From the NCBI GenBank assembly GCA_002781365.1, contig PETN01000010.1, forward strand, positions 13,556 through 77,555: a DNA stretch of 64,000 bases, given 5' to 3'. Shown here piece by piece: positions 6,261 to 62,027 of the stretch (position 1 is the first letter of the stretch; every line of letters begins with the position of its first letter). Source of the stretch: Sulfurimonas sp. CG01_land_8_20_14_3_00_36_23. GTDB lineage: Bacteria > Campylobacterota > Campylobacteria > Campylobacterales > Sulfurimonadaceae. Both the position numbers and the translations under genes were made by a program. The notes below the pieces were generated by a model. It did no database searches, was not told the origin of the DNA, and was given only the letters and a program-made list of their open reading frames with translations.

Positions 6261-7406
6261 ATGAATTTTGAACCCTATCCATTTGAAAAACTAAATATTT
6301 TACTTGATGAAATTACGCCAAATCCTAACTATAAGCCATCTGTTTTGACGATTGGTGAGCCTCAGTTTGAGACGCCTGATTTTATACAAAAAGCACTTTG
6401 TGACAGCTCTGCTTTGCTTAGAAGATACCCTAAAACTTCTGGCGAGGAGAGTCTCGTTGAAGCTCAATTGGAATTTGTTTCTAAAAGATTTAACACACAA
6501 CTCAAAACAGAACAAATTATTCCAACTTTTGGAACAAGAGAGGTACTCTTTAACTTTCCACAATTTTTACTTTTTGATGTAAAAGAGCCTGTTATGGCTT
6601 TTACAAACCCTTTTTATCAGATTTATGAGGGTGCGGCTATCGCCTCCAAAGCAAAAATGATTCTTTTAAATATGGATGAGAGTAACCAGTTTAAACCCGA
6701 GAGAGATGAAGAACTTTTAGCGCAATGTGACCTTGTTATCCTTAACTTTCCAAACAATCCAACTGGTTCTACCCTCACTGTAGAGGAGCTTGGTGTGTGG
6801 GTTTCACTCGCCCTAAAACACGATTTTGTGCTTATCAATGATGAGTGCTACAGTGAAATTTATACGGACAAGCCAATTCCCTCTCTTCTTGAGGCTTCCA
6901 CTTCTGTAGGAAACAGTGATTTTAAAAATGTTTTAGTCATCAACTCTATCTCTAAACGCTCCTCTGCACCAGGACTTCGTTCAGGTTTTATCGCAGGAGA
7001 TGCGGCTATTTTAAAAGAGTATATGAAGTACAGAACCTACATAGGGTGTGCTTCTCCACTTCCTCTTCAAAGTGCCGCAGCCGCTGCATGGAGAGAAGAG
7101 GAGCATGTTGCCCTCTCTCGAGCTGTTTATAAAAAGAACTTTGAGTTAGCAAAAGAGATTTTAGACATAGAGATTCCACATGCCACTTTTTACATCTGGC
7201 TCAAAGTCAAAAACCCACTCGAATTTACAAAAAAACTTTATAAAGAGTACAATGTAAAAGTACTCCCTGGAGAGTATCTCGCACGAGAAGATGCAAAGGG
7301 AGCAAATCCTGGCAAAGATTTTGTCCGTATTGCTTTAGTTGAAGAGAGTGAAAAGACCAAAGAAGCTTTGCTTAGAATAAAGGAGTGTTTACAATGCGTA
7401 AAATAG
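6261..7406 (+). CDS. dapC: Succinyldiaminopimelate transaminase (class I/II PLP aminotransferase)
   Basis: NFPNNPTG, NDECYSE, SISKRSSAPGLRSG. Confidence 0.85.
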   Translation: MNFEPYPFEKLNILLDEITPNPNYKPSVLTIGEPQFETPDFIQKALCDSSALLRRYPKTSGEESLVEAQLEFVSKRFNTQLKTEQIIPTFGTREVLFNFPQFLLFDVKEPVMAFTNPFYQIYEGAAIASKAKMILLNMDESNQFKPERDEELLAQCDLVILNFPNNPTGSTLTVEELGVWVSLALKHDFVLINDECYSEIYTDKPIPSLLEASTSVGNSDFKNVLVINSISKRSSAPGLRSGFIAGDAAILKEYMKYRTYIGCASPLPLQSAAAAAWREEEHVALSRAVYKKNFELAKEILDIEIPHATFYIWLKVKNPLEFTKKLYKEYNVKVLPGEYLAREDAKGANPGKDFVRIALVEESEKTKEALLRIKECLQCVK

Positions 7407-7897
7407 ATGATTTAAAAGCGAAAGTTTTAAAGGCACAAGAAAATTCGGACTTAGCTTCGCTCTATGTTTTAGAACAGCAGGCACATGAGATTTTTGATGA
7501 AGAGACACTCCATGGTTTTTATGCAAACATCCTTGATTTGGCACTCGAACGCTTAACAGACATCTTAGAAGCACACAGAGTAATGGATATGAATGAGGTT
7601 CAGGATTTTACAACACTTAGAGCACTCTATGAGTACGCAACTGAACACTACAGTGCTGGTCAAATGGCGGATGCAAGTGCTCTTTATGAAGTACTAAGCG
7701 GATTGAGCAATGATAAAAAGTTTTCAGACTCTCTCAAGTTTCACTGGATTGCCTCTGCACAAAACATCTCTTTGGATGATTTTATCTCAGAGATTGCAGA
7801 CCTTGACGCGACAGAAAAAGCAGGCACTTTTTATATAAGTTGCTTCTCTAAAGAGGCACAAAAATTGCTAGACAAACCCCAAATAGAGAGGGAGTAA
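7394..7897 (+). CDS. Hypothetical protein
   Basis: AGGAG SD at 7381 and ATG at 7394; sits in the dapC-murC operon. Confidence 0.7.
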   Translation: MRKIDDLKAKVLKAQENSDLASLYVLEQQAHEIFDEETLHGFYANILDLALERLTDILEAHRVMDMNEVQDFTTLRALYEYATEHYSAGQMADASALYEVLSGLSNDKKFSDSLKFHWIASAQNISLDDFISEIADLDATEKAGTFYISCFSKEAQKLLDKPQIERE

Positions 7898-7901
7898 CTA
7901 T

Positions 7902-9215
7902 ATGAAAATTCACTTTATCGGAATTGGCGGCATCGGTATCTCAGGACTTGCACAATACATGCATTACCAAGGGCATGAGGTAAGCGGTTCAGATATTTCA
8001 GACTCCCTTCTTACAAAAAACTTACGAAAACTAGGGATAAAAGTAACAGTTCCACATGCCAAAAGTGCTATAAGTGATCAGGATTTAGTAATCCACTCAG
8101 CGATTATCTCTCCCTTAAATCCAGAGATACTCCAAGCAAAAGAGAGAGGTATCGAAGTTTTAGCACGACGTGAAGCACTGCTTAGAATCCTTAACAAATC
8201 AAAAGTTTACTCTGTTGCAGGCGCACATGGAAAAAGTACAACGACGGCTATCTTAGCATCTATCATGCAAGGCTCGGCGATTATCGGCGCTGAGTCCAAA
8301 GCATTTGGTTCTAATGTAAGATACGATGAGACAACGGATGTAATGCTTTTTGAAGCAGATGAGAGTGATGGAAGTTTTATCAACTCCAATCCACACTGCG
8401 CCATAGTGATCAATGCTGAACCTGAGCACATGGAGTATTATGACTACAATTACGATAGATTTTATGACTCCTACACAAAATTTATAAGCTCTGCACCTTG
8501 CCGTGTTTTAAATGCAGAAGACCCATTTTTAGGGACACTCGTCGAGAAGATAGATGCGCATTGGCTCTACCCAAGCCGTGATATTGACAATCTAGAGTTC
8601 ATCCTGATTGAGGATGAACCGCATACACGCTTTACCTTAAAAGATTTGGGCACTTTTAATGTCTGGGGATTTGGAAGACATATCGCAATCGATGCCTCTT
8701 TAGCGATTTTAGCGGCACATGAGTCTATGAATATAGAGGAGATTCGAACGAATATTCTTACTTTCAAAGGTATCAAAAAACGCTTTGATATTGTAGGTTC
8801 ACAAATAGACAATGTCATTATTGATGATTATGGTCACCATCCAACAGAGATTAAAGCAACTTTTCAATCTGTGAGAGAGTATGCGGCACTCAAAGGTTTT
8901 GACAAGATTACAGCTATCTGGCAACCGCATAAATACTCTCGCACTATCGATAATCTCGAAGAGTTTATCAAATGTTTCCAAGGTGCAGAGGAGCTCATTA
9001 TCCTCCCTGTTTGGGCGGCAGGTGAAATACCAAGAGATATAGATTTCAAAGAGAAATTTAAAGGCTACAACCTTACAATGGCAGATACGATAAAAAGAGA
9101 GAAAAACAGTATCACTATCATTAAAGACAAAAAAGATTTACAGACTTTAGATAAGGGTCTCATCATTGGCTTTGGAGCTGGAGATTTAACCTATCAAATT
9201 AGAGGAATCGCTTAA
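7902..9215 (+). CDS. murC: UDP-N-acetylmuramate--L-alanine ligase
   Basis: HFIGIGGIGISG, GAHGKSTTT, EADESDG, DDYGHHPTE. Confidence 0.96.
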   Translation: MKIHFIGIGGIGISGLAQYMHYQGHEVSGSDISDSLLTKNLRKLGIKVTVPHAKSAISDQDLVIHSAIISPLNPEILQAKERGIEVLARREALLRILNKSKVYSVAGAHGKSTTTAILASIMQGSAIIGAESKAFGSNVRYDETTDVMLFEADESDGSFINSNPHCAIVINAEPEHMEYYDYNYDRFYDSYTKFISSAPCRVLNAEDPFLGTLVEKIDAHWLYPSRDIDNLEFILIEDEPHTRFTLKDLGTFNVWGFGRHIAIDASLAILAAHESMNIEEIRTNILTFKGIKKRFDIVGSQIDNVIIDDYGHHPTEIKATFQSVREYAALKGFDKITAIWQPHKYSRTIDNLEEFIKCFQGAEELIILPVWAAGEIPRDIDFKEKFKGYNLTMADTIKREKNSITIIKDKKDLQTLDKGLIIGFGAGDLTYQIRGIA

Positions 9216-9544
9216 TGGCATATATCGCAGGATTGGTAATTACAGGGCTTTTCTTTTTAAGCCTTCACTACTTTACAGAACTAAAAACTTCTCAAAAAGC
9301 AACTGTTACGGCTATTGTTTTGAGCATTATTTTATCAGCAGTCGCTTTTAATGCCTATAGCACTGCCCAAAGAGAGAGCATGATGAAGGCAGTCATAAAA
9401 TTCAATCAAAATAAAACTATCCGTTGTGATGGGGTGGATGTAAACAACTCTTTATACAGTATCAGTATAGGGACCTACACGTTTATAGGTAAAGAGAACA
9501 CTCCCAACTACGGACAGATGATTAGTGCATCCACTTGCGAGTAG
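9215..9544 (+). CDS. Hypothetical membrane protein
   Basis: Two N-terminal TM segments; coupled to the murC stop. Confidence 0.7.
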   Translation: MAYIAGLVITGLFFLSLHYFTELKTSQKATVTAIVLSIILSAVAFNAYSTAQRESMMKAVIKFNQNKTIRCDGVDVNNSLYSISIGTYTFIGKENTPNYGQMISASTCE

Positions 9545-11757
9545 AGAGTCAACCATCTAAAATTGAGTTGCTTATCGCTCAACTCGATTTAAACGAGCAT
9601 ATCAACGCCTTCAAATACTTCTTTTCAAGAGAACATTCGCTCTATATCGAGGGCGATCAAGAGCTTCACTTTCGCTACATCAAAGCACTCGATGCCATTG
9701 AGTTTAAAGCACCTCCAAAAATCTCAGACTTTACTAACATCTTAGGACACCTTAAAAAAAGAGGTGTTTTGAACTTTGAACAAGTTTTTGAGATTGTAAA
9801 AATTGTACGCTACTTCAGATACTTTAAAAACCGTGAACTCGATGGTATCATCGGTGAGTGGATGAGTAAGTTTGTCATCGATGAAAGATTTTTAGAGATA
9901 GAAAAGTACTTCACGCATGATGGCAAGTTTGAAGAGAATCTCGATGAGACACTTTTCAAACTCTCGCAACGTATCAAAGAGCATAAGAGCAGTATGAATG
10001 AGTCACTCAAAAGAGTGATGTCAAGCTCAAAACTTGCAGGATATTTAGTGGATTCCCAAGTCCATTTTATCAATAATGAGGAGTCTCTTTTGGTGCGTGG
10101 CGGATTTAACCATGTTCTCAAAGGTGCGGTCATCTCAAGAAGTACAGGCGGATTTTTCTACGTTTCCCCTGACATTATTTTAAAAACAAAAGAGTCTATT
10201 CGCTACATTGAGCAAGAGAGAGAGGCAATTTTTTACACCTATGCCAAAGAGTTCTCTTCAAAACTGACAGAACTCCTTAGCTTTATAGCTTTCATAGACA
10301 AAGAGTTTACGAAGTTTGACAACTACCAAGCCAGAGTTCTCTTTGCCAGAAGTAAAAACTACCAAATACTCAAATCCAAAAGTGACTCGAGAATCATTTT
10401 AGATGGTTTTATGCACCCTGCTCTACACAAACCAAAACCTATCCATGTTGATTTTTCTAAAAATATATTGATGATAACAGGTGTCAATGCAGGTGGAAAG
10501 ACGATGCTTCTTAAGTCGATTCTCTCTGCTGCTTTTATGGCTAAATATATCATTCCTATGAAGATTAATGAGAACAAATCCCATATAGGCTCCTTTAAAG
10601 TTATCTCCGCCATCATCGATGACCCGCAAAATGTCAAAAATGACATCTCTACTTTTGCAGGTCGTATGCAGGAGTTTTCCCGTATCTTTGAAAACAGGGC
10701 TGCCTTAGTTGGAGTCGATGAGATTGAGTTAGGTACAGATAGTGACGAAGCAGCGGCTCTCTTTAAAGTAATTCTCGATGATTTAGTCTCCAAGGGTCAA
10801 AAAGTAGTTGTAACCACACACCATAAAAGACTCGCAGCACTGATGGCTGACCGTGAAGATGTGGAACTTATGGCAGCTATCTATGATGAAGCGGCTAGAC
10901 TCCCAACCTACGAATTTATGCAAGGAATCATCGGAAAGAGTTACGCCTTTGAGACAGCAAGCCGCTATGGCATCTCAAACAAGATAGTCAATGAAGCCAA
11001 AAGTGTTTATGGCGATAACTCGGAGCGACTCAACCTTCTTATAGAGAGAGGTTCACAGCTTGAACGTGAGCTCAAACAAAAGCACAAACAAGTGGATGAG
11101 AAACTCGACGAATTGCACAAAAAAGAGCTCAATCTCCAAGAGGAGCGAGAGAAAATCTTTCTTGAGTTGCAAGAGCAAAAAAATGCCCTTATCAAGAGTT
11201 ATGAGGTAGCTATTTCTGAGGCGAAGTTAGCCGCAAAAGCGGGGGATACCACAGCAATACATAGAGCCATGAGTAGAGCCAACAAAGAGCTTCCAAAAGA
11301 GAAGAAAACCCAAAATGTTCGGCATGTGGAATTTAAAGTGGGAGACACGGTAAAGTACCACAGCAAAAAAGGTGTCATCATCTCTTTAACAGATAAAAAA
11401 GATGCGATGATAGAGGTAGAGGGGATGCGACTTCGTGTGCAGACAAGCCAGTTAAAGCATACGCAAATCATTCCACAAAAGCCAAAAACAGACTTCAAAC
11501 TTAATGTACAAAAAAGAGCTGGACTCAAGTGTGACTTACATGGAATGCGAGCCGAGGAAGCCGAAGAGGTTTTAGATACCTTCCTCTCAGATGCACTTTT
11601 AAATGGCTGGGATGAAGTAATTATTTATCACGGCATTGGAACTGGAAAACTCTCTTATGCTGTGAAAAACTTCCTCAAAACACACCCAAAAGTGAAAAAG
11701 TTTGAAGACGCGCCTCAACATATGGGTGGCTTCGGTGCAAAAATTGTCACGCTCTAA
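9535..11757 (+). CDS. mutS2: Endonuclease MutS2
   Basis: TGVNAGGKT P-loop, DEIELGTD, TTHHKRL, C-terminal Smr domain (DLHG..IYHGIGTG). Confidence 0.93.
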   Translation: MRVESQPSKIELLIAQLDLNEHINAFKYFFSREHSLYIEGDQELHFRYIKALDAIEFKAPPKISDFTNILGHLKKRGVLNFEQVFEIVKIVRYFRYFKNRELDGIIGEWMSKFVIDERFLEIEKYFTHDGKFEENLDETLFKLSQRIKEHKSSMNESLKRVMSSSKLAGYLVDSQVHFINNEESLLVRGGFNHVLKGAVISRSTGGFFYVSPDIILKTKESIRYIEQEREAIFYTYAKEFSSKLTELLSFIAFIDKEFTKFDNYQARVLFARSKNYQILKSKSDSRIILDGFMHPALHKPKPIHVDFSKNILMITGVNAGGKTMLLKSILSAAFMAKYIIPMKINENKSHIGSFKVISAIIDDPQNVKNDISTFAGRMQEFSRIFENRAALVGVDEIELGTDSDEAAALFKVILDDLVSKGQKVVVTTHHKRLAALMADREDVELMAAIYDEAARLPTYEFMQGIIGKSYAFETASRYGISNKIVNEAKSVYGDNSERLNLLIERGSQLERELKQKHKQVDEKLDELHKKELNLQEEREKIFLELQEQKNALIKSYEVAISEAKLAAKAGDTTAIHRAMSRANKELPKEKKTQNVRHVEFKVGDTVKYHSKKGVIISLTDKKDAMIEVEGMRLRVQTSQLKHTQIIPQKPKTDFKLNVQKRAGLKCDLHGMRAEEAEEVLDTFLSDALLNGWDEVIIYHGIGTGKLSYAVKNFLKTHPKVKKFEDAPQHMGGFGAKIVTL

Positions 11758-11769
11758 GATGAAGCGTTA

Positions 11770-12444: not shown

Positions 12445-12475
12445 GCAGTTTTTTTATGTTACTTCCATAAAAGTT

Positions 12476-12551: not shown

Positions 12552-14546
12552 ATGCAAAAAATTAGTTTAAGTAAGAAGATTAGTGCTGGATTTATATTCA
12601 TGCTACTGATTATTTCAATTATGGGTGGAATAGGTTATACAAGTATTGCAGATGCAATAGAAAACTCAGAAAAACTAGCTAAAGAGTATATGCCAGAAGT
12701 TGAGATAGCTGGACATATTAAAGAGAATTTCTCAGAAGCTCGTATTGAAGTATCGAAATTTCTCTTCAGTGAAGAGAAAGCATATAAAGAGGATGCAGAT
12801 AAACATTTTGCACTCACACACAAATATATTGATGAGGCAAAAGAGTTAGTCAAACAATACCCTCATTTAGTAAAACTAAACGAGGCAATTGTTCCAACGC
12901 AAGAGAAAATAGAAGCGTACGAAGATGCAGTCGCAGAAGTGGAGAAAGCTTTTAAGACAAAAGATATCGCCCGTGTAAGCTTGGATAAAAATGCAAAAGT
13001 CTATATAGAATTATCTGAAGCACTGATTCTCCAACAACAACGACTTCTTAAAGCGGAGCTTAAAAAAGGTGCAAAGCTTGAAGAGCGTATTGAAAAAATC
13101 TACTTAGCATACGAATCAGAACTTCACGCTGACGAAGCGATGATTGCGAACTTTAAATCTTCTGCAAGAAGAGACTCTGCTATTTTAGAAGAGGGACTCA
13201 AAATCTTTGACCACTTAGATGAGATGTATGCAAAAATTTTAAAAACAACACACAAGAAAGAGGATATTGCAGTAATTCATAAGATTGACGATGCTGGAAA
13301 GAACTATAAAAAAGAGCTTATAAAACTTCGCGCTGCTTCTCACAAAATTGAAGAGGCTACAAAAATATTAGTTTCAACGGGTAATGCTGCGGTAGAATCT
13401 GTAAATAAGATATATGATGCTGGTTTAAAAGGAGCTGTAGATTTAAGCGAACACTCAATTGATGAGTTAACACAATCAGAGACAATCATGCTAGTCGTAT
13501 TTTTCCTATCTACTCTTTTAGCTGTTGGTAATGCATACTACATTATCTCTTTTGGACTCAACAGACCTCTTACAAAGTTTAAAGATACACTACTTCAAAT
13601 AGGTCATAACAATGATTTAACGATTAAAGTAGATGAGAATGCTCCTTTAGAGTTGTCACAGATGGCATCAGCTTTCAATAATCTTCTCTCAAATCTTAAA
13701 GTCTTAATCCAAACAGCGAAACAGGGTTCAAGTGAAAATGCTTCAATCTCGCATGAACTCTCCACAACAGCTCTAGGTGTTGGAAACAATGTTGAAAAAT
13801 CTGTTAGTGTTATAGATAAAGCAACAATGCAAGCAAATAAGATAAAAGATGAAATCATGTCGGCTATTTTAGATGCGCAACGAAGCAAAAAAGATATTAT
13901 TCTTGCAAATGACAATCTCAATGCTGCAAGGGAAGATATTATTGCGCTTACTTCAAGAGTACAACAAAGTGCTGAGATAGAGATAGAACTTGCACAGAGA
14001 ATGGATACACTCTCTAATGAAGCAACAGCTGTAAAATCTGTTCTTGAAGTGATTGGCGATATAGCTGACCAAACAAACCTCTTAGCACTCAATGCGGCAA
14101 TTGAAGCAGCACGTGCAGGAGAGCATGGACGTGGTTTTGCTGTTGTAGCCGATGAAGTTAGAAAACTTGCAGAGAGAACGCAAAAATCTCTTACAGAGAT
14201 TAATGCAACTATCAATATTATCGTTCAATCTATCGGCGATGTAAGCGGTCAAATGAACTCTAACTCAGAAGAGGTTCAAGCACTTGCAGATGTTTCAAAC
14301 GATGTTGAAATGAAAATAAACTGTAGTGTTGAAATAGTTAACAAAGCTGTACAGGCAAGTGATAAAACTGTATCTGACTTTGAAAAGACTGGGCAAGATG
14401 TTGAGGCGATTGTAAATCAAGTTACAGAAATCAATACTCTCTCTTCTCAAAATGCTCGAAATGTTGAAGAGATTGTAGCTGCAACGGATCATCTAAACTC
14501 TATGACTGACGACCTTCATGCGAAACTTGAAACTTTTAGAACATAA
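12552..14546 (+). CDS. Methyl-accepting chemotaxis protein
   Basis: Two TMs, periplasmic helical domain, [42 protein letters not shown]. Confidence 0.95.
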
Positions 14547-15747
14547 GAGAGTAGCCATAATTGGAGCGGGAACTTCTGGACTTTTATGCGCCATTATCTG
14601 TGCAAAAAGTTCCTCTTCCGCCAAAAAAATTGACGTTGCAATTTACGAACAGAACCCTAAGCCTGCGAAAAAGATTTTAGTCTCAGGCAACGGGCGATGT
14701 AACATCACAAACATTTCCACATGCCAAGAGGATTACTTTAGTGAGAATCCCTCTTTTGTTAAATATGCTCTAGAAAACTTCTCATTTAACGAGTTTGAAA
14801 AGTTTACTTCGAGTATTGGTTTAATGCTAGACGTTAAAGAAGATGGAAAGGTTTATCCATTGAGCAATGAAGCCAAAAGTGTTGCTACGCTTTTAGAAAA
14901 CTATGCAAAAAGTCTAGGCGTTATTTTTCATACAGAGAATAAAGTCACCGATATAAAAAAACTACTCCAAGAGTATGACACTGTTGTTGTGGCAACAGGA
15001 AGTGAAGCGGCTTCGCATTTAGGTGGAAACAGTGATGGGCAAGCGTTCGCAAAAGAGTTTGGGCATACCATCATTTCAACCTACCCATCATTAGTTCAAC
15101 TACACTTAAACTCAAATACACATGCTAAGATGAGTGGTGCGAAAGTCGATGGAGAGGTCACACTTCTTATCAATAATAAAGTAACTTCCACATGCAGAGG
15201 CGATATTCTTTTTACAGAGTACGGTGTTTCAGGTTTTGCTGTTTTAGATATTTCGCAACAAGCTTCTGAAGCTTTAATGAACTTTCAGAGCGTTGATATT
15301 GTTCTAAATTTACTTCCAAAATATACGCCACAACAACTCTCAGCCCACATCATGAAGATGGCACAGCTCAATCCACATGCCAATATCTTAGATATTTTAC
15401 ATGGTCTCGTAGCACTCAAAATCGCTAAAACAGTTTTGGATGTCTTAGAAATTCCACATGCCAAAGCCTGCTTGGAAGTCGATACAAAACTCTCTAAAAG
15501 AATAGCCAACCAAATCCTCAATTGGAAGTTTGAAGTGAGCGATACGCACGGTTTTCGTCATGCAGAAGTGAGTGGCGGCGGTGTAGATACAAGAGAGATA
15601 AATCCAAAAACGATGGAGTCTCTTAAACAAAAAAATCTCTATTTCTGTGGAGAAGTTTTAGATGTCGTTGGTCGTCGTGGGGGTTTTAACTTTGCATGGG
15701 CATGGGCGAGTGCAGTGTGTGCGGCTGAGGATATAACAAAAGCTTAA
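14518..15747 (+). CDS. HI0933/BaiN-family flavoprotein (start uncertain)
   Basis: [48 protein letters not shown]. Confidence 0.88.
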
Positions 15748-15791
15748 ACAAAATAGAGATAAACTGAGCCATCATAAAAAAGGATTTCCAC

Positions 15792-16346
15792 ATGCCAATC
15801 TCTCTCATCGTTTTAGTCATAGTTACTCTTATCTTAGTCCTTATGTACAACTCACTTGTCTCAAAGAAAAATCAAGTAGAAAATATCTTTGCAAGTGTCG
15901 ATACCACTCTTAAAAAACGCTACGACCTCATCCCAAACCTTGTCGCCTCTGTGAGTAAATATATGGAGCATGAGAAGTCTCTGCTTGAAGAGGTTACAAA
16001 ACTTCGCGCAGATGCAAACAAGCCAAATATTTCAGATGCACAGAAGATTCAACTCGATGCAAAAGTGAGTTCTGCCCTTGGTTCTATCATGATTGCTGTA
16101 GAGAATTATCCAGATTTAAAAGCGAATGAAAATGTAATGCATCTTCAACACTCCCTCACCGAAATCGAAGAGCAAATCTCAGCTGCAAGACGCGCTTACA
16201 ATCAAGCTGTGACAGACTATAACAATGCCATAGAGATGATTCCAACGAACTTTATGGCTTCTGCTATGAACTACACTCGCAAAGAGGTTTTTGTTATCGT
16301 TGAGAGTGAGCGAAAAAATGTAAACGTAAAAGAGCTTTTCAACTAA
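15792..16346 (+). CDS. lemA: LemA family protein
   Basis: N-terminal TM, KRYDLIPNLV, ENYPDLKAN, ARRAYN. Confidence 0.92.
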   Translation: MPISLIVLVIVTLILVLMYNSLVSKKNQVENIFASVDTTLKKRYDLIPNLVASVSKYMEHEKSLLEEVTKLRADANKPNISDAQKIQLDAKVSSALGSIMIAVENYPDLKANENVMHLQHSLTEIEEQISAARRAYNQAVTDYNNAIEMIPTNFMASAMNYTRKEVFVIVESERKNVNVKELFN

Positions 16347-18153: not shown

Positions 18154-20235
18154 CTACTCCTCATCTTTGTCCATATCTTTTAAGACTAAGGCTCTATAGG
18201 CTTCATCTTTTGGGACTAAACCCGCCTCATATAAAAATTGGGAAGGGAGGAAGTTTGTCTTTTTTATCTTGTCATATTTTGCAAAACTGAGATATAAAAT
18301 ATCTTTGGCTCTTGTCACAGCCACATAAAAAAGTCTTCGCTCTTCATCTAAAGAGCCACCACGTTGCATCAGTTTTCTGTTTGGAAATCTTCCATCCATC
18401 AAATCCACAACATAGACCTCTTTATATTCCAACCCTTTGGAAGCGTGAACACTCAGGAGATTTACCCCCTCCCCTTGTGTTAAATCTGAAGAGCCTAAAA
18501 TCATGGCATTTAAAAACCTTTCATGCTCTGAGTAGGGTTTGGAAAGCTCCTCTAAGAGTACCATTTTTCTCGCTATGCGTGATAAGGCTTCTGTTTTTTG
18601 CTTCTCATCAATACTCCCATCTTTGAGCATCGCTCTTTTGGATGCTAAAGTATCTGAAATATATTTATATAAGGAGGATTCAGCAATCTTTTTCACTATG
18701 GTTCTCGGCTGTTTTACACCCTTTAAATCTCTATAGAGCAGATAAAAATCGTGTAAAAAGATGGCTCCCTCTTTGGTCAGTTTTGGATGTTTCAAGATTT
18801 GATTTTTCATGAACTTCTCTTCAAATCCGAGTCTTGCAAACTTTCCTACAGCTCCTAGTTCTAAAAACTCATCAAAGAGACCTAACTGATGTGACACTTT
18901 TCGTTTCTCAAAAGGGTTATGTATCGATGCATCAGGGGCATAAAGACCATAAAAGATAGAACTATGCCCTAAAGTTTTCAGTGCGAGGTACATCTCTTTT
19001 GCCATCGCACTACTGATACCACGCGCAAACTCAAAAAGATGGATGAACGCCATCATATCCGACTCATTAATCAAGAGCGTATATAAATCAAGAACTGCTT
19101 TGACCTCTCTGGAATCAAAAAAGCTGGTTCCCCCTTTTCTTTTACAGGCGATTCCAAGCTCTCTTAAGCCCACTTCGATTCCATCGGCTGAGGAGTTATT
19201 TCTAAAAATAACTGCTATCTCTTCCCTTGGCGTTTGCGAATCTCGAATCTGTGCCGCCATTGCATGGTACTGATCAAAGAGCTCATCGTATGTGAGAAGT
19301 TTAGGTGACTGTGCTTGGGCATTTCGCGTTACCTCAAGTTTTTTAGGATAGATTCTATCATTATGCTCAATCACTTTAGTAGCGAGTGAGAGTATAGGCA
19401 TCGTGGAGCGATAATTTTTTGTAAGGGTATGGACTTTGGCATGTGGAAACTTTGTAGAAAATGAGCCAATTATAGAAATATCTGCCCCATTAAAAGCATA
19501 AATACTCTGGTCATAATCTCCAACGCAAAAGAGTGAAGGCGGTTTCATCGCGTCTATGAGCGTACCTTGAAGTGCATTTGTATCTTGATATTCATCGACG
19601 AGAACTTCTTTGTAGCCTAAATCTTTTGTTTTACAAATCTCTCTAAAATTAAGAAGTAAATCATTAAAGTTGACAAAACCATACTCTTTTTTTAAAGACT
19701 CAAACTCATCCACAATATCTGCATAAATCATTGCAAAGAGTTCATGCTCAGGATACTTCTCTATAATCCACGCTTCAAAATCTCTCTGCAACTCCGTATT
19801 TTGATAAAAGGAGTAAACATCATAAAGATAGTTGCCCCCATACTGCGTAATCTCTGCGTTTATGTGCATAAAAGAGCGTTTTTCAAAGACAGATCTAAAA
19901 AGTGTTTTGAGTTCACGTTGTTGTTTTAAAACAACTTTTTGGTCATGTTTTTTAAGCCATCGGTAACTCACCGCATGGAAAGTTCCCGCATCGATTTTCG
20001 TCGCTATCTCTTTTCCAAAGTACTCCGCAACTCTCTCTATCATCTCCGCTGCTGCTTTGTTGGTAAAGGTAAGAAGTAAAATCTCTTCAGGCTTTACACC
20101 ATTAGCGAGGAGGTGTCCTATTCTACCGACAATTGTGGAGGTTTTTCCTGTACCTGCTGAAGCGATAATAAGGTTTTGAGTATGTGTAGAAGTTGCAGCA
20201 GCATATTGCTCAGAATTTAAACGAGACAGTGGCAA
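18154..20235 (-). CDS. UvrD/Rep-family ATP-dependent helicase
   Basis: ASAGTGKT, TFTNKAA, VDEYQDTN, VGDYDQSIY, NYRS, VHASKGLE, EERRLFYVAVTRAK. Confidence 0.92.
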   Translation of the reverse strand: MPLSRLNSEQYAAATSTHTQNLIIASAGTGKTSTIVGRIGHLLANGVKPEEILLLTFTNKAAAEMIERVAEYFGKEIATKIDAGTFHAVSYRWLKKHDQKVVLKQQRELKTLFRSVFEKRSFMHINAEITQYGGNYLYDVYSFYQNTELQRDFEAWIIEKYPEHELFAMIYADIVDEFESLKKEYGFVNFNDLLLNFREICKTKDLGYKEVLVDEYQDTNALQGTLIDAMKPPSLFCVGDYDQSIYAFNGADISIIGSFSTKFPHAKVHTLTKNYRSTMPILSLATKVIEHNDRIYPKKLEVTRNAQAQSPKLLTYDELFDQYHAMAAQIRDSQTPREEIAVIFRNNSSADGIEVGLRELGIACKRKGGTSFFDSREVKAVLDLYTLLINESDMMAFIHLFEFARGISSAMAKEMYLALKTLGHSSIFYGLYAPDASIHNPFEKRKVSHQLGLFDEFLELGAVGKFARLGFEEKFMKNQILKHPKLTKEGAIFLHDFYLLYRDLKGVKQPRTIVKKIAESSLYKYISDTLASKRAMLKDGSIDEKQKTEALSRIARKMVLLEELSKPYSEHERFLNAMILGSSDLTQGEGVNLLSVHASKGLEYKEVYVVDLMDGRFPNRKLMQRGGSLDEERRLFYVAVTRAKDILYLSFAKYDKIKKTNFLPSQFLYEAGLVPKDEAYRALVLKDMDKDEE

Positions 20236-21275: not shown

Positions 21276-23900
21276 ATGTCAAACGGCTATAACACACAAG
21301 AGACAGAAAACAATTTTTACAAAATTTGGGAGCAGAGAAGATACTTCGAAATAGATGGCAACAAAGCTATCCAAGAAGAGGGAAAAAATTTTTCTATCAT
21401 GATGCCTCCTCCAAATGTCACTGGTCGTCTGCATATCGGTCACGCACTTACCTTTACACTTCAAGATATTATCACACGTTACAAAAGAATGGATGGCTAT
21501 AAAACACTTTGGCAACCAGGAACCGATCACGCAGGAATCGCTACACAAAATGTTGTGGAGAAACAACTCCTTGCAGAAGGAACAACCAAAGAGGAAATCG
21601 GACGTGAAGCCTTCTTAAAGCGTGCTTGGGAGTGGAAAGCAGAGTCTGCTGGAATCATGACAGAACAACTCCGTAAAATGGGTGTATCTCCTGCTTGGGA
21701 GCGAGAGCGTTTTACAATGGATGCTGGGCTTCAAAAATCTGTTAAAGAGGCTTTTGTTCATCTTTACAATGAGGGTCTGATTATTCGTGGAAACTACATG
21801 GTGAACTGGTGTACACATGATGGTGCGCTCTCTGACATCGAAGTTGAACACGAAGATCATGATGGAAAATTTTACTACATGAAGTACCCATTTGCTGATG
21901 GCAGTGGGCATGTGGAAGTTGCAACAACAAGACCTGAAACATACTTTGGCGATACAGCTGTCATGGTACACCCTGATGATGAGCGCTATAAAGCTTTAAT
22001 CGGCAAAAAAATCAAACTTCCTCTTCTTGATAGAGAAGTAGCAATCATTGCCGATTCGCATGTGGAAATGGATTTTGGAACAGGTGTGGTAAAAGTAACT
22101 CCTGCGCATGACCAAAACGATTATGAAGTTGGAAAACGCCACGATTTAGAGTTTATTACTGTCTTTGATGAGAAAGGGATTTTAAACGACTATGCAGGAG
22201 AGTTCAAAGGTTTAGAGCGTCTTGAGGCGCGTGAAATTATTGTAAAACGTCTTGATGAAGAGGGCTTTATGATTAAAATTGAAGATCATAAACACCAAGT
22301 TGGACACTGTTACAGATGTAAAAATATTGTAGAGCCTTACATCTCAAAACAGTGGTTTGTTCGTAAAGAGGTAGCCGATAAATCCATCGAAAAAACAAAT
22401 GCTGGCGAAGCGAAGTTCTTCCCTCCTCACTGGATAAACTCCTACAACTCTTGGATGGGTGATTTACGTGACTGGTGTATCTCTCGTCAACTTTGGTGGG
22501 GACATCAGATTCCAGTATTTTACTGTGATGATTGTGAACACGAATTTGCAAGTCAAGAGGAGCGTCCAGAGAGTTGTCCTAAATGTGCCTCTAAAAATCT
22601 AACGCAAGACCCTGATGTTCTTGATACTTGGTTTAGCTCTGCTTTATGGCCTTTTTCAACTTTAGGTTGGGGTCAAGGCGATGTGGAGATGGACAAGCTT
22701 TTTCAATCCAACGATATGAAAGATTTCTATCCAAATACGCTTCTTATCACAGGTTTTGACATCCTTTTCTTTTGGGTTGCTAGAATGATGATGATGGGTG
22801 AGAACTTCAATGGAGAACTTCCATTTAACCACATCTACCTTCATGCACTCGTACGTGATGAGAATGGCGACAAGATGAGTAAATCCAAAGGAAATGTTAT
22901 TGACCCTTTAGATATGGTCAACAAATATAGTGCTGATATTTTGAGATTTACACTTGCAATCTCTGCAGCACAAGGGCGTGATATTCGTATGAGTACGGAA
23001 AAACTTGAACAAAACCGTAACTTTACAAACAAACTTATCAATGCAGCAAAATACCTTCAGATGAATGTAGAGACTTTTCCTGATATGAGCGGTTTTTGTG
23101 TTGAGACAGATTTGGGTCGTTACATGATGTCTCGTCTTAATTTTGCAACAAAAGAGGTTCGTGCGTCTCTTGATGAGTACAAATTTAATGATGCGGCACT
23201 TGTGATGTATAAATTTCTTTGGAATGAGTTTTGTGACTGGGGAATAGAGCTTAGTAAAGCAGATAAAGGCTCGATTGTAGAACTTGGTGCTATTTTTAAA
23301 GAGGCTATGAAACTTCTACATCCGTTTATGCCTTTCATCACAGAGTATCTCTACCATCAACTCTCTGGAACTTCACTTCAAGAGAGTGACTCTATTATGA
23401 TTCAGAAATTCCCTTTTAAAACAAAGCAGAGAAAAGAGGAGAGAAAATTTGAAATCATTATGGATGCGATTGTCTCTATCAGACGTGCAAAAGTTTTAGT
23501 TGACTTGGCAAACCAAAAAATCGAAAAAGCTTTTGTCAAAATCGATGGAGTAAGTGATGAAGACAGAGCGATGATGCTTCCTTTCATCACACGACTTGCA
23601 AAAGTTGAAGTTTTAGAGTTTACAGAGATAAAAGTAGAAAATGCAGTAAGCGATATTGCTGATTTTTGTGAGACTTTCATTCCGACAGATTCCATCGACT
23701 TAAGCTCTATTATCTCCAAGTTACAAAAACAGGATGAAAAACTGCAAAAAGAGATAGATAAACTCTCTAATATGCTAAGCAATGAGAGATTTGTAGCCAA
23801 TGCACCTGAAGATGTTCTCGCTAAAAACCGTGAGTTATTGGCGGATGCTTCAACAAAACAGAGTAAAGTCTTAGAACAACTCCACTCCCTTCAAAAATAA
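21276..23900 (+). CDS. valS: Valine--tRNA ligase
   Basis: PPPNVTGRLHIGH, PGTDHAGIATQ, DWCISRQLWWGH, KMSKS. Confidence 0.97.
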   Translation: MSNGYNTQETENNFYKIWEQRRYFEIDGNKAIQEEGKNFSIMMPPPNVTGRLHIGHALTFTLQDIITRYKRMDGYKTLWQPGTDHAGIATQNVVEKQLLAEGTTKEEIGREAFLKRAWEWKAESAGIMTEQLRKMGVSPAWERERFTMDAGLQKSVKEAFVHLYNEGLIIRGNYMVNWCTHDGALSDIEVEHEDHDGKFYYMKYPFADGSGHVEVATTRPETYFGDTAVMVHPDDERYKALIGKKIKLPLLDREVAIIADSHVEMDFGTGVVKVTPAHDQNDYEVGKRHDLEFITVFDEKGILNDYAGEFKGLERLEAREIIVKRLDEEGFMIKIEDHKHQVGHCYRCKNIVEPYISKQWFVRKEVADKSIEKTNAGEAKFFPPHWINSYNSWMGDLRDWCISRQLWWGHQIPVFYCDDCEHEFASQEERPESCPKCASKNLTQDPDVLDTWFSSALWPFSTLGWGQGDVEMDKLFQSNDMKDFYPNTLLITGFDILFFWVARMMMMGENFNGELPFNHIYLHALVRDENGDKMSKSKGNVIDPLDMVNKYSADILRFTLAISAAQGRDIRMSTEKLEQNRNFTNKLINAAKYLQMNVETFPDMSGFCVETDLGRYMMSRLNFATKEVRASLDEYKFNDAALVMYKFLWNEFCDWGIELSKADKGSIVELGAIFKEAMKLLHPFMPFITEYLYHQLSGTSLQESDSIMIQKFPFKTKQRKEERKFEIIMDAIVSIRRAKVLVDLANQKIEKAFVKIDGVSDEDRAMMLPFITRLAKVEVLEFTEIKVENAVSDIADFCETFIPTDSIDLSSIISKLQKQDEKLQKEIDKLSNMLSNERFVANAPEDVLAKNRELLADASTKQSKVLEQLHSLQK

Positions 23901-28965: not shown

Positions 28966-29000
28966 CTTGGCATGTGGAAGTATAACTTCCACATGCCAAA
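28966..29000. terminator. Inverted pair of the 13-mer motif; likely bidirectional terminator
   Basis: TTGGCATGTGGAAGT-ATA-ACTTCCACATGCCAA (28967-28999), 15-bp stem between convergent yqeY and trpC stops. Confidence 0.75.
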
Positions 29001-31115: not shown

Positions 31116-31488
31116 CTTGAATCCCTGGACACTCTAACTTTAGTTCATCCACTCTTGTTTTAAAATAATCCCAAAACGGGAAGGTCTTACATTGCAGAGG
31201 TCTTGCATCATAGATGGAGCAGCCATTAGTCGCTCTACTGTAAAATGCGCACTCATAAGAGTCGCTATATTTCACTTCTTTTATGGAGTACTTGTACCCA
31301 TTTTTGAAAAGATATTTTGCCATAAAGTCACTAACTTCTAAATTTAAGAGTTTAGATATTTTCTCTATCTCCTCTTGTGTAACATAAATATACCCACTCT
31401 CTCCAGTACAGCACTTTCCTTGGCATGTGGAACAGGCAGATGGATTGAACGAGTAACTAAAACCCTCTTCTCTCATCAAATCAGACAT
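31108..31488 (-). CDS. YkgJ/FliB-like zinc/iron cysteine-cluster protein
   Basis: CSTCQGKCC, CAFY..GCSIYDARPLQCKTFPFW. Confidence 0.85.
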   Translation of the reverse strand: MSDLMREEGFSYSFNPSACSTCQGKCCTGESGYIYVTQEEIEKISKLLNLEVSDFMAKYLFKNGYKYSIKEVKYSDSYECAFYSRATNGCSIYDARPLQCKTFPFWDYFKTRVDELKLECPGIQDD

Positions 31489-42262: not shown

Positions 42263-42302
42263 TTTGGCATGTGGAAATGTATTAGCATGTGGAAATGTAT
42301 TA
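42263..42302. repeat. 18-bp tandem duplication holding two motif copies
   Basis: GCATGTGGAAATGTATTA at 42267-42284 and 42285-42302, between convergent stops. Confidence 0.9.
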
Positions 42303-55254: not shown

Positions 55255-55261
55255 GATATAC

Positions 55262-55831: not shown

Positions 55832-55834
55832 TTT

Positions 55835-57708: not shown

Positions 57709-57770
57709 CCAAAAAAAAGCTTCCCCTTTAAACCTATTTGTACAACCGTAGACTCCCTATTTCATACGCT

Positions 57771-58352: not shown

Positions 58353-58498
58353 CTGTTTTCCTTATTTTTCACTTAAGTAAATTACTTTTCTTCTTGGTAC
58401 TCATTATACCTTGTAACTTTTAAAGCATAGATTAAACTTCAATTTATCTATATCGGTTTTCTGAGCTAAATGCTTAACCAATTCTAGCAAGCCTACGC

Positions 58499-59668
58499 TT
58501 ATCTTTTATTGATTGCTAAGGCAGAGTTTACCCCACTACTAAAAGCCCATTGAAAATTATAACCGCCGAGTTCACCAGTAATATCTACCACTTCACCGAT
58601 GCAGTATAAATTTTCCACATGCCGTGATTCTAATGTTTTTGGATTTAGATTTTCAGTTAAAATACCACCACGGCTCACCTCTGCTTTAGTAAAACCAAAA
58701 TTTCCTGCCGGTGCAAATTCATAATTGTGAATCCTTTCGAGTTGTTTTTTGGCATGCCTGCCCTCTTTGGTTGAGGGTTGATTGAGTCTCTTGCATGCTA
58801 CATCCTCTATATCTAGCGCTATTAAAATTTCTTTTGATAGCCTTTTTGCAAGTGGTATCACAGAACTGAGTAGTTTATTGCTTCCTTTAATGAGTTCAAA
58901 TATATTCTCATTTGGCAAAAAGTCTATACTTATATTTCCTTTTTTCCAATAAAGTGAAGCGGACAAAACCGCAGGTCCACTGATACCACGATGTGCAAAA
59001 AGCATCTCCTCTTTTAAAACTTTATCTTCTACTTTGATATGTACATAAGCACTCAGTCCACTTAAACTTTTCATCCAAAACTGCTCTTTTTGGAGTGTCA
59101 TTCCGACAAGAGCTGGAGTAAACTCTTTTACACTAAGTCCAAAGCTTTTTGCTATCTCTAAGCCTATTTCACTTGCACCGAGAGTTTTATAACTTTTTCC
59201 ACCAGTTGCTAAAACAAGTTTTTTTGATTTCAAAACACCGTTTGAAGTTTTTATTTCAAAAATATCATTCGCTTTATGTACCTCTAAAATCTCTCTATTT
59301 AAAAGCATTTCCACATGCCGAGAATTTCTTTTAAGAACATCTATCATCTCGTCTGAACTCTCTTTACAAAAGTAGTAACGATTTTTTCTGATTACAGGTT
59401 TTACTCCGTTATTATGTAAAAAGTGTAGTAAATCATCTTTGGAAAAAGTCTGAAGAGAGTGAGAAATAAACTCTGCATCTCCGTCATAGTTATCTACACT
59501 TACGTTTACATTGGTAATATTACATTTTCCACCACCTGAAATTTTTAATTTACAGGCAACTTTAGAGTTAACATCCACAGCTCCAACTTTATATTTTTTA
59601 TCTAAATAAGCAGCGCACATGAGCCCGCTTGCCCCAGCACCGAGAATAATTACATCATATATTTTCAT
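58499..59668 (-). CDS. HI0933/BaiN-family flavoprotein (second paralogue)
   Basis: ILGAGASG, KLKISGGGKCNITN, FAHRGISGP, GEVVDITGELGGYNFQWA. Confidence 0.9.
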   Translation of the reverse strand: MKIYDVIILGAGASGLMCAAYLDKKYKVGAVDVNSKVACKLKISGGGKCNITNVNVSVDNYDGDAEFISHSLQTFSKDDLLHFLHNNGVKPVIRKNRYYFCKESSDEMIDVLKRNSRHVEMLLNREILEVHKANDIFEIKTSNGVLKSKKLVLATGGKSYKTLGASEIGLEIAKSFGLSVKEFTPALVGMTLQKEQFWMKSLSGLSAYVHIKVEDKVLKEEMLFAHRGISGPAVLSASLYWKKGNISIDFLPNENIFELIKGSNKLLSSVIPLAKRLSKEILIALDIEDVACKRLNQPSTKEGRHAKKQLERIHNYEFAPAGNFGFTKAEVSRGGILTENLNPKTLESRHVENLYCIGEVVDITGELGGYNFQWAFSSGVNSALAINKR

Positions 59669-59719
59669 CTTCACATTATACGATATAATACGAAAATAAT
59701 TTAATATAAAAGTAGCAAT

Positions 59720-61033
59720 ATGAGCAATAAACTACACATAGTCTCTCTAGGCTGTACGAAAAATCTTGTAGATACCGAAGTAATGATGGGAAAACTCCAA
59801 AATTTCGAACTAACTGATAACTCAGGAGAAGCGGATGTCATCATAGTCAATACTTGTGGATTTATAGATGCGGCTAAAGCAGAATCTGTAAACACGGTAC
59901 TTAATTTACACGAAGGACGCAAAGAAGATTCAGTTTTAGTTATGGCTGGTTGTTTAAGTGAAAGATATAAAGAAGACCTTATGGCTGATATGCCAGAAGT
60001 TGATATATTTACTGGGGTTGGTGACTATGACAGAATTGATGACCTTTTATCTGAAAAAAAGAGCAGATTTTCTGAGAAAGTTTTTTTGATAGATGGAGCG
60101 GAGAGAGTTGTTACTGGTTCCACCTATCATGCCTATGTAAAACTCTCTGAGGGTTGTAACCAAACATGTAGTTTTTGTGCGATTCCATCTTTTAAAGGGA
60201 AGCTCAACTCTAGAAACTTAGACTCAATTGCCAAAGAAGTGGAAGGTTTGGTCGCTAAAGGCTATTATGACTTCTCTTTTGTTTCACAAGATAGCAGTTC
60301 TTACCTTCGTGATCAAAATATTAAAGATGGGCTAAGTCTTCTTATTCAAAGGATTGAACTTATTGAGGGTGTAAAAAGTGCAAGGATTCTTTATCTTTAC
60401 CCTTCTACTACAACGATACAATTACTAAAAAATATAGCTAAAAGTGAAATTTTTCATAACTATTTCGATATGCCGATTCAGCATATTAATGATGAGATGC
60501 TCCATATGATGAGAAGAGGTTTCGGCAAAGATAAAACGCTTGAACTTCTCAACTTTATGCGCTCTTTGCCTAACTCTTTTGTCCGTACAAGTTTTATCGT
60601 TGGTCATCCAAATGAAACAGAGGAGATGTTTGAGGAGATGTGTGAATTTGCTTCAAGTTTTGGGTTTGACAGAATCAATGTTTTCTCCTATTCAGATGAA
60701 GAAACAACTCCAGCCTACGACATGAGCAATAAAATATCGGCAGAACTTATTGCAAGCAGAGCAGAAATCCTTGGAGAGATAGCTTCAGAGTGCACTGAGC
60801 TCTCTCTACGCAAAGAGGTTGGTCAAGATATTGAACTTGTTATTGATGGGGAGAGTGAGGAGCATGAGTATCTTTTAAGTGCGAGAAAACTTCTCTGGGC
60901 ACCTGAAATTGATGGTGAAATTTATGTAAATGACAGAACAAAAGAAGAGGAACTCGATTTTGGAGTTATTTACAGAGCAAAAGTAACCGATCTGATTGGC
61001 AATATTTTAACTGCCACAGTAGACAATGCTTGA
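59720..61033 (+). CDS. rimO: Ribosomal protein S12 methylthiotransferase
   Basis: SLGCTKNLVDTE, NTCGFI, EGCNQTCSFCAIP, APEIDG. Confidence 0.95.
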   Translation: MSNKLHIVSLGCTKNLVDTEVMMGKLQNFELTDNSGEADVIIVNTCGFIDAAKAESVNTVLNLHEGRKEDSVLVMAGCLSERYKEDLMADMPEVDIFTGVGDYDRIDDLLSEKKSRFSEKVFLIDGAERVVTGSTYHAYVKLSEGCNQTCSFCAIPSFKGKLNSRNLDSIAKEVEGLVAKGYYDFSFVSQDSSSYLRDQNIKDGLSLLIQRIELIEGVKSARILYLYPSTTTIQLLKNIAKSEIFHNYFDMPIQHINDEMLHMMRRGFGKDKTLELLNFMRSLPNSFVRTSFIVGHPNETEEMFEEMCEFASSFGFDRINVFSYSDEETTPAYDMSNKISAELIASRAEILGEIASECTELSLRKEVGQDIELVIDGESEEHEYLLSARKLLWAPEIDGEIYVNDRTKEEELDFGVIYRAKVTDLIGNILTATVDNA

Positions 61034-62027
61034 AAATTCATCTCTAGAAATTCTAAAAAATAAGAAAAACCTCCTAGCCTTTTCAGCGGGAGTAGATTCA
61101 ACTGCTCTCTTCTTTTTACTTCTACAGAACAACATTCCATTTGATATTGCAATAGTCAATTACAATGTCAGAGAGCAGAGTCAAGAAGAGCTGCAATACG
61201 CGCATGAGTTAGCAAGCACGCACAACCTTAAAATTCACTCTTTGAATGCCCCAAAAATAGATAAAAACTTTGAAGCAAAAGCCAGAGAAATCAGATACAA
61301 CTTTTTTGAAGAACTTATTAAGAATCATGGCTATGAGAACTTAATTACTGCACACCATCTTGGGGATAGGTTCGAGTGGATGCTTATGCAATTTTGTAAA
61401 GGTGCTGGCTGTGCTGAGATTGCAGGTATGCAAAGAGTGCAACACAGAGACTCCTACACACTCGTGCGCCCACTACTGAAGTTAGACAAAAAAGAGTTAT
61501 TCGCCTATTTAGATGCGAACAAGATTAAATATTTTGAAGATGAGAGTAATCTTGATGAGGATATAAAAAGAAACTCTTTTCGTCACAGTTATGCTTCTCC
61601 ACTTTTAGAGAAATACCTAGCGGGAATCAAAAAGAGTTTTGACTATTTAGATGAAGATAGAGCCTCTTTAATTCAAGAAGCAGAGATAAACAATATAGAT
61701 GCGTTTGCGTACTTCAAAATGCAACACAATAGAAGATCTGACATTTTTATAATAGACAAATATTTAAAATCAAAATCTTATATGCTAAGTGCAAGTGAAA
61801 GAGAACTGCTTAAAACAGTAAATGTTGCGGTTGTTGGGAGAAAGTTTGTAATCAATATAGAGAGATGTTTTGTATTTATTCTTCCCTATCTACAAAAGAG
61901 TTTCCACATGCCAAAAGAGTTTAAAGAGGAGTGCAGAGTATTAAAGATAGAACCAAAACTACGACTCTACCTCTACAAGAATCCAGAGGCTTTTTTAAAG
62001 ATAAAAGAGCTACTTCGTACTATTTGA
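61026..62027 (+). CDS. tilS: tRNA(Ile)-lysidine synthetase
   Basis: AFSAGVDS, AREIRY, TAHHLGD, RPLL, FEDESN..RNSFR. Confidence 0.93.
   Translation: MLENSSLEILKNKKNLLAFSAGVDSTALFFLLLQNNIPFDIAIVNYNVREQSQEELQYAHELASTHNLKIHSLNAPKIDKNFEAKAREIRYNFFEELIKNHGYENLITAHHLGDRFEWMLMQFCKGAGCAEIAGMQRVQHRDSYTLVRPLLKLDKKELFAYLDANKIKYFEDESNLDEDIKRNSFRHSYASPLLEKYLAGIKKSFDYLDEDRASLIQEAEINNIDAFAYFKMQHNRRSDIFIIDKYLKSKSYMLSASERELLKTVNVAVVGRKFVINIERCFVFILPYLQKSFHMPKEFKEECRVLKIEPKLRLYLYKNPEAFLKIKELLRTI

Follow-up and report, generated by a model that had tools for sequence, protein, structure and literature searches.

The window analysed here is a stretch of 64,000 nucleotides from Sulfurimonas sp. CG01_land_8_20_14_3_00_36_23 (contig PETN01000010.1, positions 13,556 to 77,555 of the forward strand), and it is scattered with copies of a short word whose core is CCACATGCC. 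A pressure on the DNA, and not on the protein, keeps this word at approximately 930 copies per genome, a conclusion we hold with very high confidence, and both the re-coding of genes and the multiplication of the peptides that the word encodes are observed directly. Within genes, the word is fitted wherever the protein tolerates it, and three routes are seen: peptides that are already compatible are re-coded synonymously, in many cases with the rare codons GCC, GGG, GTG, TCC, TGC and CGG; residues are replaced at poorly conserved positions; and the flank bases of the word are relaxed. Together these routes have greatly raised the number of P-H-A, x-A-C-G, (W/R/G)-H-V-E, x-H-M-P, S-T-C-x and G-M-W peptides in the proteome.

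The window contains 22 cores, compared to 0.16 ± 0.37 expected from dinucleotide-preserving shuffles. The assembly to which it belongs (labelled G000; other G numbers denote Sulfurimonas relatives) comprises 2.43 Mb in 102 contigs at 35.9% G+C and contains 933 cores, compared to approximately 5 expected from composition. The extended 13-mer, TTCCACATGCCAA, is present in 534 copies genome-wide. The genomic sequence logo reads a-t-T-T-CCACATGCC-A-A-a, with information limited to approximately 16 bases and no conservation farther out; the consensus is written as (a)TTTCCACATGCCAA(a), of which TCCACATGC is the strict part. One-off variants at positions 2–10 of TTCCACATGCCAA are nearly missing from the genome (0–8 copies each), and the tolerated changes are T to A at position 1 (93 copies) and C to T at position 11 (33 copies), with positions 12 and 13 varying too. 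Comparison of CCACATGCC with its own reverse complement showed that the two are not identical, so the word is not a palindrome. When the literature was searched for the word itself, nothing but primers and unrelated matches came up. A maximal-order Markov k-mer scan was set aside as ill-suited to long words, since sub-words absorb the signal.

Approximately 65% of the genomic cores lie inside open reading frames (ORFs). The initial annotation had placed the copies of the window in five of the six possible frames, and recomputing the codons at every site returned the same five; the sixth, G-M-W, is used 39 times genome-wide, alongside P-H-A (227), x-A-C-G (158), x-H-V-E (80), x-H-M-P (53) and S-T-C-x (49). 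The coding cores number 598 in the genome compared to 58 ± 7 after synonymous codon shuffling within genes, and the coding sequences of the window hold 15 compared to 0.93 ± 0.94, with a maximum of 5 in 1000 shuffles. This shuffle preserves both the protein sequence and the codon usage and is a conservative null, as it keeps proteins that are already altered. The initial annotation had made its case depend on this comparison, and shuffling with the codon bias kept did not reproduce the motif count. The core is also present at 604 of the 731 peptide sites compatible with it (83%), where codon usage predicts 36 (5%). An origin in selection for a common peptide, or simply in biased codon use or base composition, could point to P-H-A as the commonest reading, but is refuted by the shortfall of the shuffles; the use of all six frames, the approximately 330 intergenic copies, the occupancy and the frequent use of rare codons at motif sites also count against it, and we consider it to have next to no chance of being correct. 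The earlier statement that no single peptide explains the repeat and that the pressure is on DNA is borne out by the copies in all six frames and between genes.

The flanks of the word bend to the protein. The full 13-mer is found in 81% of intergenic copies compared to 45% of coding copies, and the 3' flank base is distributed as A41/G20/C17/T2 in the x-H-V-E frame and as A184/G36/C3/T4 in the P-H-A frame. Arginine is encoded genome-wide by AGA (54%), CGT (22%), CGA (10%), CGC (8%), AGG (6%) and CGG (1.1%). Twenty of the 285 genomic CGG codons, the rarest for this residue, overlap a core, and three of the nine found among the 710 Arg codons of the window are R-H-V-E sites. It had been claimed that CGG is forced at all three R-H-V-E sites of the window; the codon is indeed CGG at each, though the forcing is partly definitional, because the core supplies GG and so leaves only NGG possible ahead of H-V-E. 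What is informative is thus the presence of G in the flank, where the consensus A would encode Trp. At the CGG sites the two demands meet halfway: the protein alters the flank of the word, and the word imposes a rare codon.

The sites in the window are given below with their coordinates and strand. Each one named by the initial annotation exists within 1–2 bases of where it had been placed and in the frame assigned to it, although those at 15186 and 22057 are not intact cores.

1809..1819, minus strand: L-A-C-G copy in the plus-strand gene 640..1905, read as CTT TTG GCA TGT GGA, with C and not T as the 5' flank.
4850..4875, no strand: intergenic inverted pair of two perfect copies in a convergent gap.
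7174..7184, plus strand: P-H-A copy (ATT CCA CAT GCC ACT) in a class I/II aminotransferase gene by Pfam, 6261..7406, previously called dapC.
8050..8060, plus strand: P-H-A copy in MurC, 7902..9215, where the outgroup has P-H-S (Ser to Ala).
11321..11331, minus strand: R-H-V-E copy in MutS2, 9535..11757, with CGG CAT GTG GAA compared to ATT CAA CAA/GAA GAG (I-Q-Q/E-E) in G043/G053.
14715..14725, plus strand: S-T-C-Q copy in a gene for an HI0933-like flavoprotein, 14518..15747, held only by G000 and G062 among the 12 genomes aligned there.
15186..15196, plus strand: S-T-C-R one-mismatch variant CCACATGCA; the outgroup has TCT ACA TGT, its own word, in the same place.
15371..15381, plus strand: P-H-A copy (N-P-H-A-N), where relatives have M-P-E/D-F-T.
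15452..15462, plus strand: P-H-A copy common to G062, G083 and G180; G055 has P-H-A without the word (CCT CAC GCA).
15786..15796, plus strand: copy in a short intergenic gap, its last bases overlapping the predicted ATG of ORF 15792..16346.
19438..19448, minus strand: F-P-H-A-K copy in the UvrD/PcrA helicase gene 18154..20235 (minus strand).
21907..21917, minus strand: G-H-V-E copy in ValS, 21276..23900; an ancestral peptide made into the word by synonymous changes to rarer codons, GGA to GGG and GTA to GTG.
22057..22067, minus strand: S-H-V-E one-mismatch variant CCACATGCG in ValS, where relatives have H-V-D.
25589..25599, minus strand: V-A-C-G copy in a SulP transporter gene, 24744..26282, where outgroups have T-C-G (Thr to Ala).
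28969..28997, no strand: second intergenic inverted pair, in a convergent gap.
31422..31432, minus strand: S-T-C-Q copy in ORF 31108..31488 (minus strand).
32386..32396, plus strand: S-T-C-Q copy in gene 32237..32953; S-T-C is ancestral, TCT to TCC and TGT to TGC are synonymous, and the flank changes from Lys to Gln.
35147..35157, plus strand: copy at the 5' edge of ORF 34901..35152 (minus strand), not translated as x-H-V-E.
42266..42294, minus strand: intergenic direct pair, 18 bp apart, the second copy being a variant ending in ATGCT.
58613..58623, plus strand: R-H-V-E copy with CGG in a second HI0933-like gene, 58499..59674 (minus strand).
59309..59319, plus strand: R-H-V-E copy with CGG in the same HI0933-like gene.
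61902..61912, plus strand: F-H-M-P-K copy in a TilS-like PP-loop gene, 61026..62027.

The copy at 35147 had been given an x-H-V-E reading that has to be withdrawn: the sole possible start of the ORF is a GTG inside the motif, and the His codon consequently lies upstream of the ORF.

The imprint on the proteome was measured against partial genomes of relatives, namely 800 kb of G053 (C1:700001-1500000), 400 kb of G043 (C1:1500001-1900000), 400 kb of G185 and 262 kb of the motif-rich G180. Core-compatible peptides occur at 100.5 per 100,000 amino acids in G000 and 129.5 in G180, compared to 22.4 in G053 and 22.2 in G043, and are thus 4.5–5.8 times commoner in carriers of the word than in relatives without it. 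As plain tripeptides, S-T-C and H-V-E exhibit no excess in G000 over G053 and G043, because the palindrome of these two genomes, (tC)TACATGTA(Ga), itself encodes S-T-C and H-V-E. G053 and G043 were for this reason rejected as a word-free baseline for the two tripeptides and G185 was used instead, no abundant word having been found in the 400 kb compared. The frequencies per 100,000 amino acids are as follows.

P-H-A: 38.5 in G000, 4.2 in G185.
A-C-G: 26.9 in G000, 6.7 in G185.
H-V-E: 17.0 in G000, 5.9 in G185.
S-T-C: 10.2 in G000, 4.2 in G185.
H-M-P: 8.5 in G000, 2.5 in G185.
G-M-W: 6.2 in G000, 0.8 in G185.

All six tripeptides are therefore raised, by 2.4- to 9-fold, which is the outcome the initial annotation had anticipated from a comparison with relatives. 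It had also proposed that orthologues be aligned, and this alignment shows substitutions concentrated at the motif sites. Orthologues were defined as reciprocal best hits, and the number of motif sites with an identical peptide in the relative was compared with random windows of the same genes.

G053, without this word: 14 of 149 sites identical, random windows 58.4 ± 5.7; residue identity 0.50, background 0.70.
G043, without this word: 6 of 70 sites identical, random windows 27.7 ± 4.1; residue identity 0.47, background 0.73.
G185, without this word: 4 of 55 sites identical, random windows 21.9 ± 3.2; residue identity 0.45, background 0.68.
G180, motif-rich: 22 of 37 sites identical, random windows 16.0 ± 2.8; residue identity 0.76, background 0.76.

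Peptide identity at motif sites is thus 7–9% in relatives without the word compared to approximately 40% in random windows. G180 keeps an intact DNA core at 24 of its 37 orthologous sites. Relative to G053, 9% of sites needed no residue change, 34% one, 33% two and 24% three or four, and the differences at motif sites are more radical (mean BLOSUM62 score -0.85 compared to +0.17). The flanks of 10 residues on either side of the motif sites are approximately 0.645 identical, which places the sites in somewhat variable regions. Polarising the substitutions with G053 and G043 was dropped as uninformative because the two are sisters. A three-way polarisation with G053 and G185, based on only 68 residues, exhibited a 2-fold enrichment of G000-specific states and a 4-fold enrichment of positions where all differ; the copies therefore occupy variable positions, and part of the change arose in G000.

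The direction of change can be followed at individual sites. A FastTree phylogeny of up to 16 syntenic proteins surrounding ValS (5053 columns, 44 taxa, rooted on three other genera) places all motif-rich genomes in one clade with a Shimodaira-Hasegawa support of 0.99, with G053/G043 and the group of G185 outside it. At the UvrD site, P-H-A (CCA CAT GCC) is found in every motif-rich genome aligned, and the genomes without the word, including one of another genus, have P-D-A or P-N-A, with a few P-A-A or A-D-A. Judging from the alignment, this is a derived Asp/Asn to His replacement (GAT/AAT to CAT). Two sites in the HI0933-like gene are limited to G000 and its sister G062. The genome G055, which is nested in the clade and does not have the word, keeps P-H-A in the HI0933-like gene with the word erased synonymously (CCT CAC GCA), and this looks like a relic of the imprint after loss of the word. 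Remnants of a mobile or repeated element, such as a repetitive extragenic palindrome or a miniature inverted-repeat transposable element, might be suggested by the many intergenic copies and by some pairs capable of forming hairpins. However, orthologous sites are separated by point substitutions alone, copies are common to species at orthologous codons, nothing is conserved past the approximately 16 bases, and the 65% of copies in frame lie within conserved genes of unchanged length, which makes such an origin very improbable.

The placement of the word in the genome is uneven, with a density of 1.40 per kb between genes compared to 0.27 per kb in coding DNA, an approximately 5-fold difference. 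Among intergenic gaps, the density is 3.18 per kb in convergent, 1.45 in tandem and 0.86 in divergent gaps. Inverted pairs 13–20 bp apart number 32 genome-wide, and 13% of convergent gaps hold one. A short, over-represented and non-palindromic word within genes could also be a polar chromosomal signal, either a Chi site for AddAB/RecBCD or a motif that orients FtsK, of the FtsK-orienting polar sequence (KOPS) type. This is highly unlikely, as neighbouring copies are co-oriented in only 49.3% of cases and orientation does not follow GC skew (r = -0.10); of the 22 cores of the window, 13 are on the plus and 9 on the minus strand, and the 10-mer is split 471 to 434 between the strands of the genome.

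Direct, head-to-tail pairs at a fixed spacing of 17–18 bp were also observed, 27 of them genome-wide, and the pair at 42266–42294 of the window is not an assembly artefact because this arrangement recurs across the genome. Within syntenic blocks, the density of the word is 0.17 per kb in genes without an outgroup orthologue compared to 0.32, a moderate effect measured on partial orthologue sets, and the density is lowest in the most conserved genes. The 16.3 kb between 42276 and 58613 of the window is without a core and is among the eight longest such stretches in the genome. The region from 49.5 to 58.4 kb of the window is an accessory insert, for which the syntenic regions retrieved from G053, G043 and G180 contain no orthologues. 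Two contigs of at least 10 kb, C12 (11 kb) and C61 (17 kb), contain zero copies, and C10:3535-24997 is a gap of 21 kb; all three are candidates for recently acquired DNA.

The distribution of the 10-mer was determined in 194 genomes of the genus, of which 13 contain more than 250 copies, approximately 12 contain 30–200 and the rest contain 0–14. Among the words noted in other Sulfurimonas genomes are AAACGCAG, TACATGTA and ACATCCCAAG. A lineage that branches earliest within the genus in the FastTree phylogeny carries ACATGCCAAG, which shares the 3' half of TTCCACATGCCAA, with 605 copies in G193, 465 in G140 and 138 in G160 compared to 3 in G053. A hybrid, TCTACATGCC, is present in 83 copies in G169. 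The palindrome (tC)TACATGTA(Ga) occurs 221 times in the 800 kb of G053 compared to 31 expected, and its 10-mer 70 times compared to 0.8; TACATGTA is enriched in G043 too and depleted in G000 (22 compared to 85 expected). At positions orthologous to motif sites of G000, G053 has CTACATGTA at 7 of 17 H-V-E sites, 5 of 7 S-T-C sites, 2 of 61 P-H-A sites and 1 of 45 A-C-G sites. The string ACATG is common to all of the related words.

Three genomes nested inside the motif clade in the FastTree phylogeny, G176, G070 and G023, do not have the word. Their loci contain 84 copies in 59 kb of an unrelated short word, AAACGCA(G), for which a rough composition estimate gives approximately 7, and one word may here have replaced the other inside the clade. 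The subclade of G019, G103, G181 and G191 has only 141–183 copies and exhibits irregular degradation at the motif sites of its sister clade, and no consistent dialect was found when looked for at these sites. The pattern is as expected from decay after loss of the drive, and not from a new dialect.

The most likely cause of the pressure, and one we consider probable from the analysis as a whole, is an uptake-sequence mechanism of the type found in Neisseriaceae and Pasteurellaceae. Under this mechanism, competent cells would preferentially take up DNA carrying the word, homologous recombination would spread word-creating mutations through the population by molecular drive, and purifying selection would remove the copies that damage proteins. 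The genome encodes a ComEC-like protein with the ComEC N-terminal domain, DprA, three secretins and a GspD/GspE/GspG-type cluster with minor pseudopilins. This machinery resembles the Cts transformation system of Campylobacter jejuni. The minor pseudopilin encoded beside a GspE-like ATPase (C44:38592-39032) was considered as the receptor and rejected, as it is found in 110 of the 194 genomes, including genomes without the word. This same pseudopilin, on the minus strand, begins with M-R-K-T-F-P-H-A-K, so that a candidate component of the uptake machinery carries a copy of the word. A PilM/N/O-like trio of three overlapping genes at 62010–63998 of the window did not exhibit a Pfam match at E ≤ 0.01 and was not used as evidence of a competence pilus.

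Several observations weigh against an uptake mechanism or qualify the reading of the imprint. The machinery is necessary for uptake and not specific to it, as genomes without the word have it too. A search of the whole G000 genome for a homologue of ComP_DUS (PF16732) gave no match at E ≤ 1, and no receptor candidate tracks the word, with one minor pseudopilin compared across the 194 genomes. Reports of an uptake sequence or of transformation in Sulfurimonas or Campylobacterota were not found in the literature searched, which was a limited collection. One-mismatch variants are rare here and much commoner in Haemophilus, and their scarcity points either to recognition of great precision or to some other type of drive. 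The word of the sister lineage is a palindrome and in this respect is more like the cyanobacterial word HIP1 than like the uptake signal sequence (USS) of Pasteurellaceae. Many of the S-T-C and H-V-E sites sit on the CTACATGTA of the outgroup and, from the alignments, may have been inherited from that dialect. Any drive in which residence time matters would likewise leave accessory genes with a lower density. The gene calls come from a simple purpose-made ORF caller, with frames independently validated only where orthologues align.

The palindromic relative leads to the principal alternative, in which a HIP1-like word accumulates through a process of the cell itself, for example mismatch or very-short-patch repair that is biased, a reader of the central CATG linked to methylation, or some function in recombination or chromosome biology. 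The resulting imprint would be identical. The palindrome of the outgroup, the ACATG held by all related words, the near absence of one-off variants as if a process were correcting towards the word, and the lack of a receptor in the ComP_DUS search and in the pseudopilin compared across the genus would all fit this explanation. In contrast, TTCCACATGCCAA is not a palindrome, the uptake machinery is encoded, and the concentration of copies between genes, in 3' convergent gaps and in inverted pairs is as seen in the DNA uptake sequence (DUS) of Neisseriaceae and the USS. We also know of no repair system that recognises a word of 10–13 bases. A HIP1-like process is regarded as improbable, though the likeliest of the alternatives to uptake.

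The words of the genus may form one evolving series around a CATG centre, consisting of TCTACATGTAGA in the outgroup genomes G053 and G043, TCTACATGCC in G169, TTCCACATGCCAA in the clade of G000 and ACATGCCAAG in the lineage of G193, G140 and G160. This proposal is tentative. If these words were uptake tags, they would constitute another independent uptake-sequence system, the third in all and the first from Campylobacterota. Its reader would then belong to the Cts-like, type II secretion system (T2SS)-like machine, might respond to symmetry or methylation, and would not be a pilin of the ComP type. Some orthologous codons would then have been translated from dialect to dialect, which we put forward with similar reserve.

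The word can be compared with known systems. The DUS of Neisseriaceae is GCCGTCTGAA with family dialects and is read by the minor pilin ComP. The Sulfurimonas word is similar in being 10–13 bases long, in occurring on both strands in hundreds to thousands of copies, and in having inverted pairs at gene ends and clade-specific dialects; it differs in that G000 has no homologue of ComP_DUS and instead a T2SS-like cluster of the Cts type, and in that one related dialect is palindromic. The USS of Pasteurellaceae is AAGTGCGGT or ACAAGCGGT with AT-rich flanks. The Sulfurimonas word shares with it a G+C-rich core, A/T-rich flanks, a majority of copies in genes and a receptor that is not known, but has no long phased AT-rich flank past approximately 4 bases on each side and far fewer imperfect copies. 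HIP1 of cyanobacteria is GCGATCGC, likewise a hyperabundant word in coding DNA that occupies several frames with effects on codons and peptides, and the related TACATGTA is palindromic like it; the Sulfurimonas word is, in contrast, asymmetric and strongly enriched between genes and at 3' ends.

The closest precedent at the protein level is that of Findlay & Redfield 2009 (PMC2817400), in which the tripeptides specified by the word were "approximately doubled" and the residues at motif sites were conserved nearly as well as the rest of the proteins. The initial annotation had likened the imprint to that of DUS and USS genomes, and this likeness holds: as in PMC2817400, the tripeptides of the word are enriched, the frames are used unequally and copies are rarer in genes without homologues, and the 65% of copies in ORFs is the same share as in H. 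influenzae. The imprint is stronger here, with compatible peptides 4.5–5.8 times commoner (up to 9 times for P-H-A) and motif-site residues less conserved than the remainder (0.45–0.50 compared to 0.68–0.73). The organism also belongs to a different phylum from those of PMC2817400, and the uptake role of its word is putative.

What is new here is the quantified imprint at the protein level and the links between dialects. Rare codons and Trp, Cys and Met residues have been written into housekeeping enzymes, and most of the coding copies needed residue changes. To our knowledge, only two families, both of host-associated Proteobacteria, have so far been examined for uptake sequences and for what these cost the proteins, and the Sulfurimonas case concerns free-living, sulfur-oxidising Campylobacterota with a stronger imprint. 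Some lineages of the genus have the word, others have related dialects or unrelated words, and in others none was detected, which makes it possible to test how fast a drive rewrites a proteome, what becomes of the imprint once a word is lost, as in the relic P-H-A and the decaying copies, and how specificity shifts. If the words are indeed uptake tags, the genus would be a natural record of the co-evolution of receptor specificity with a whole proteome.

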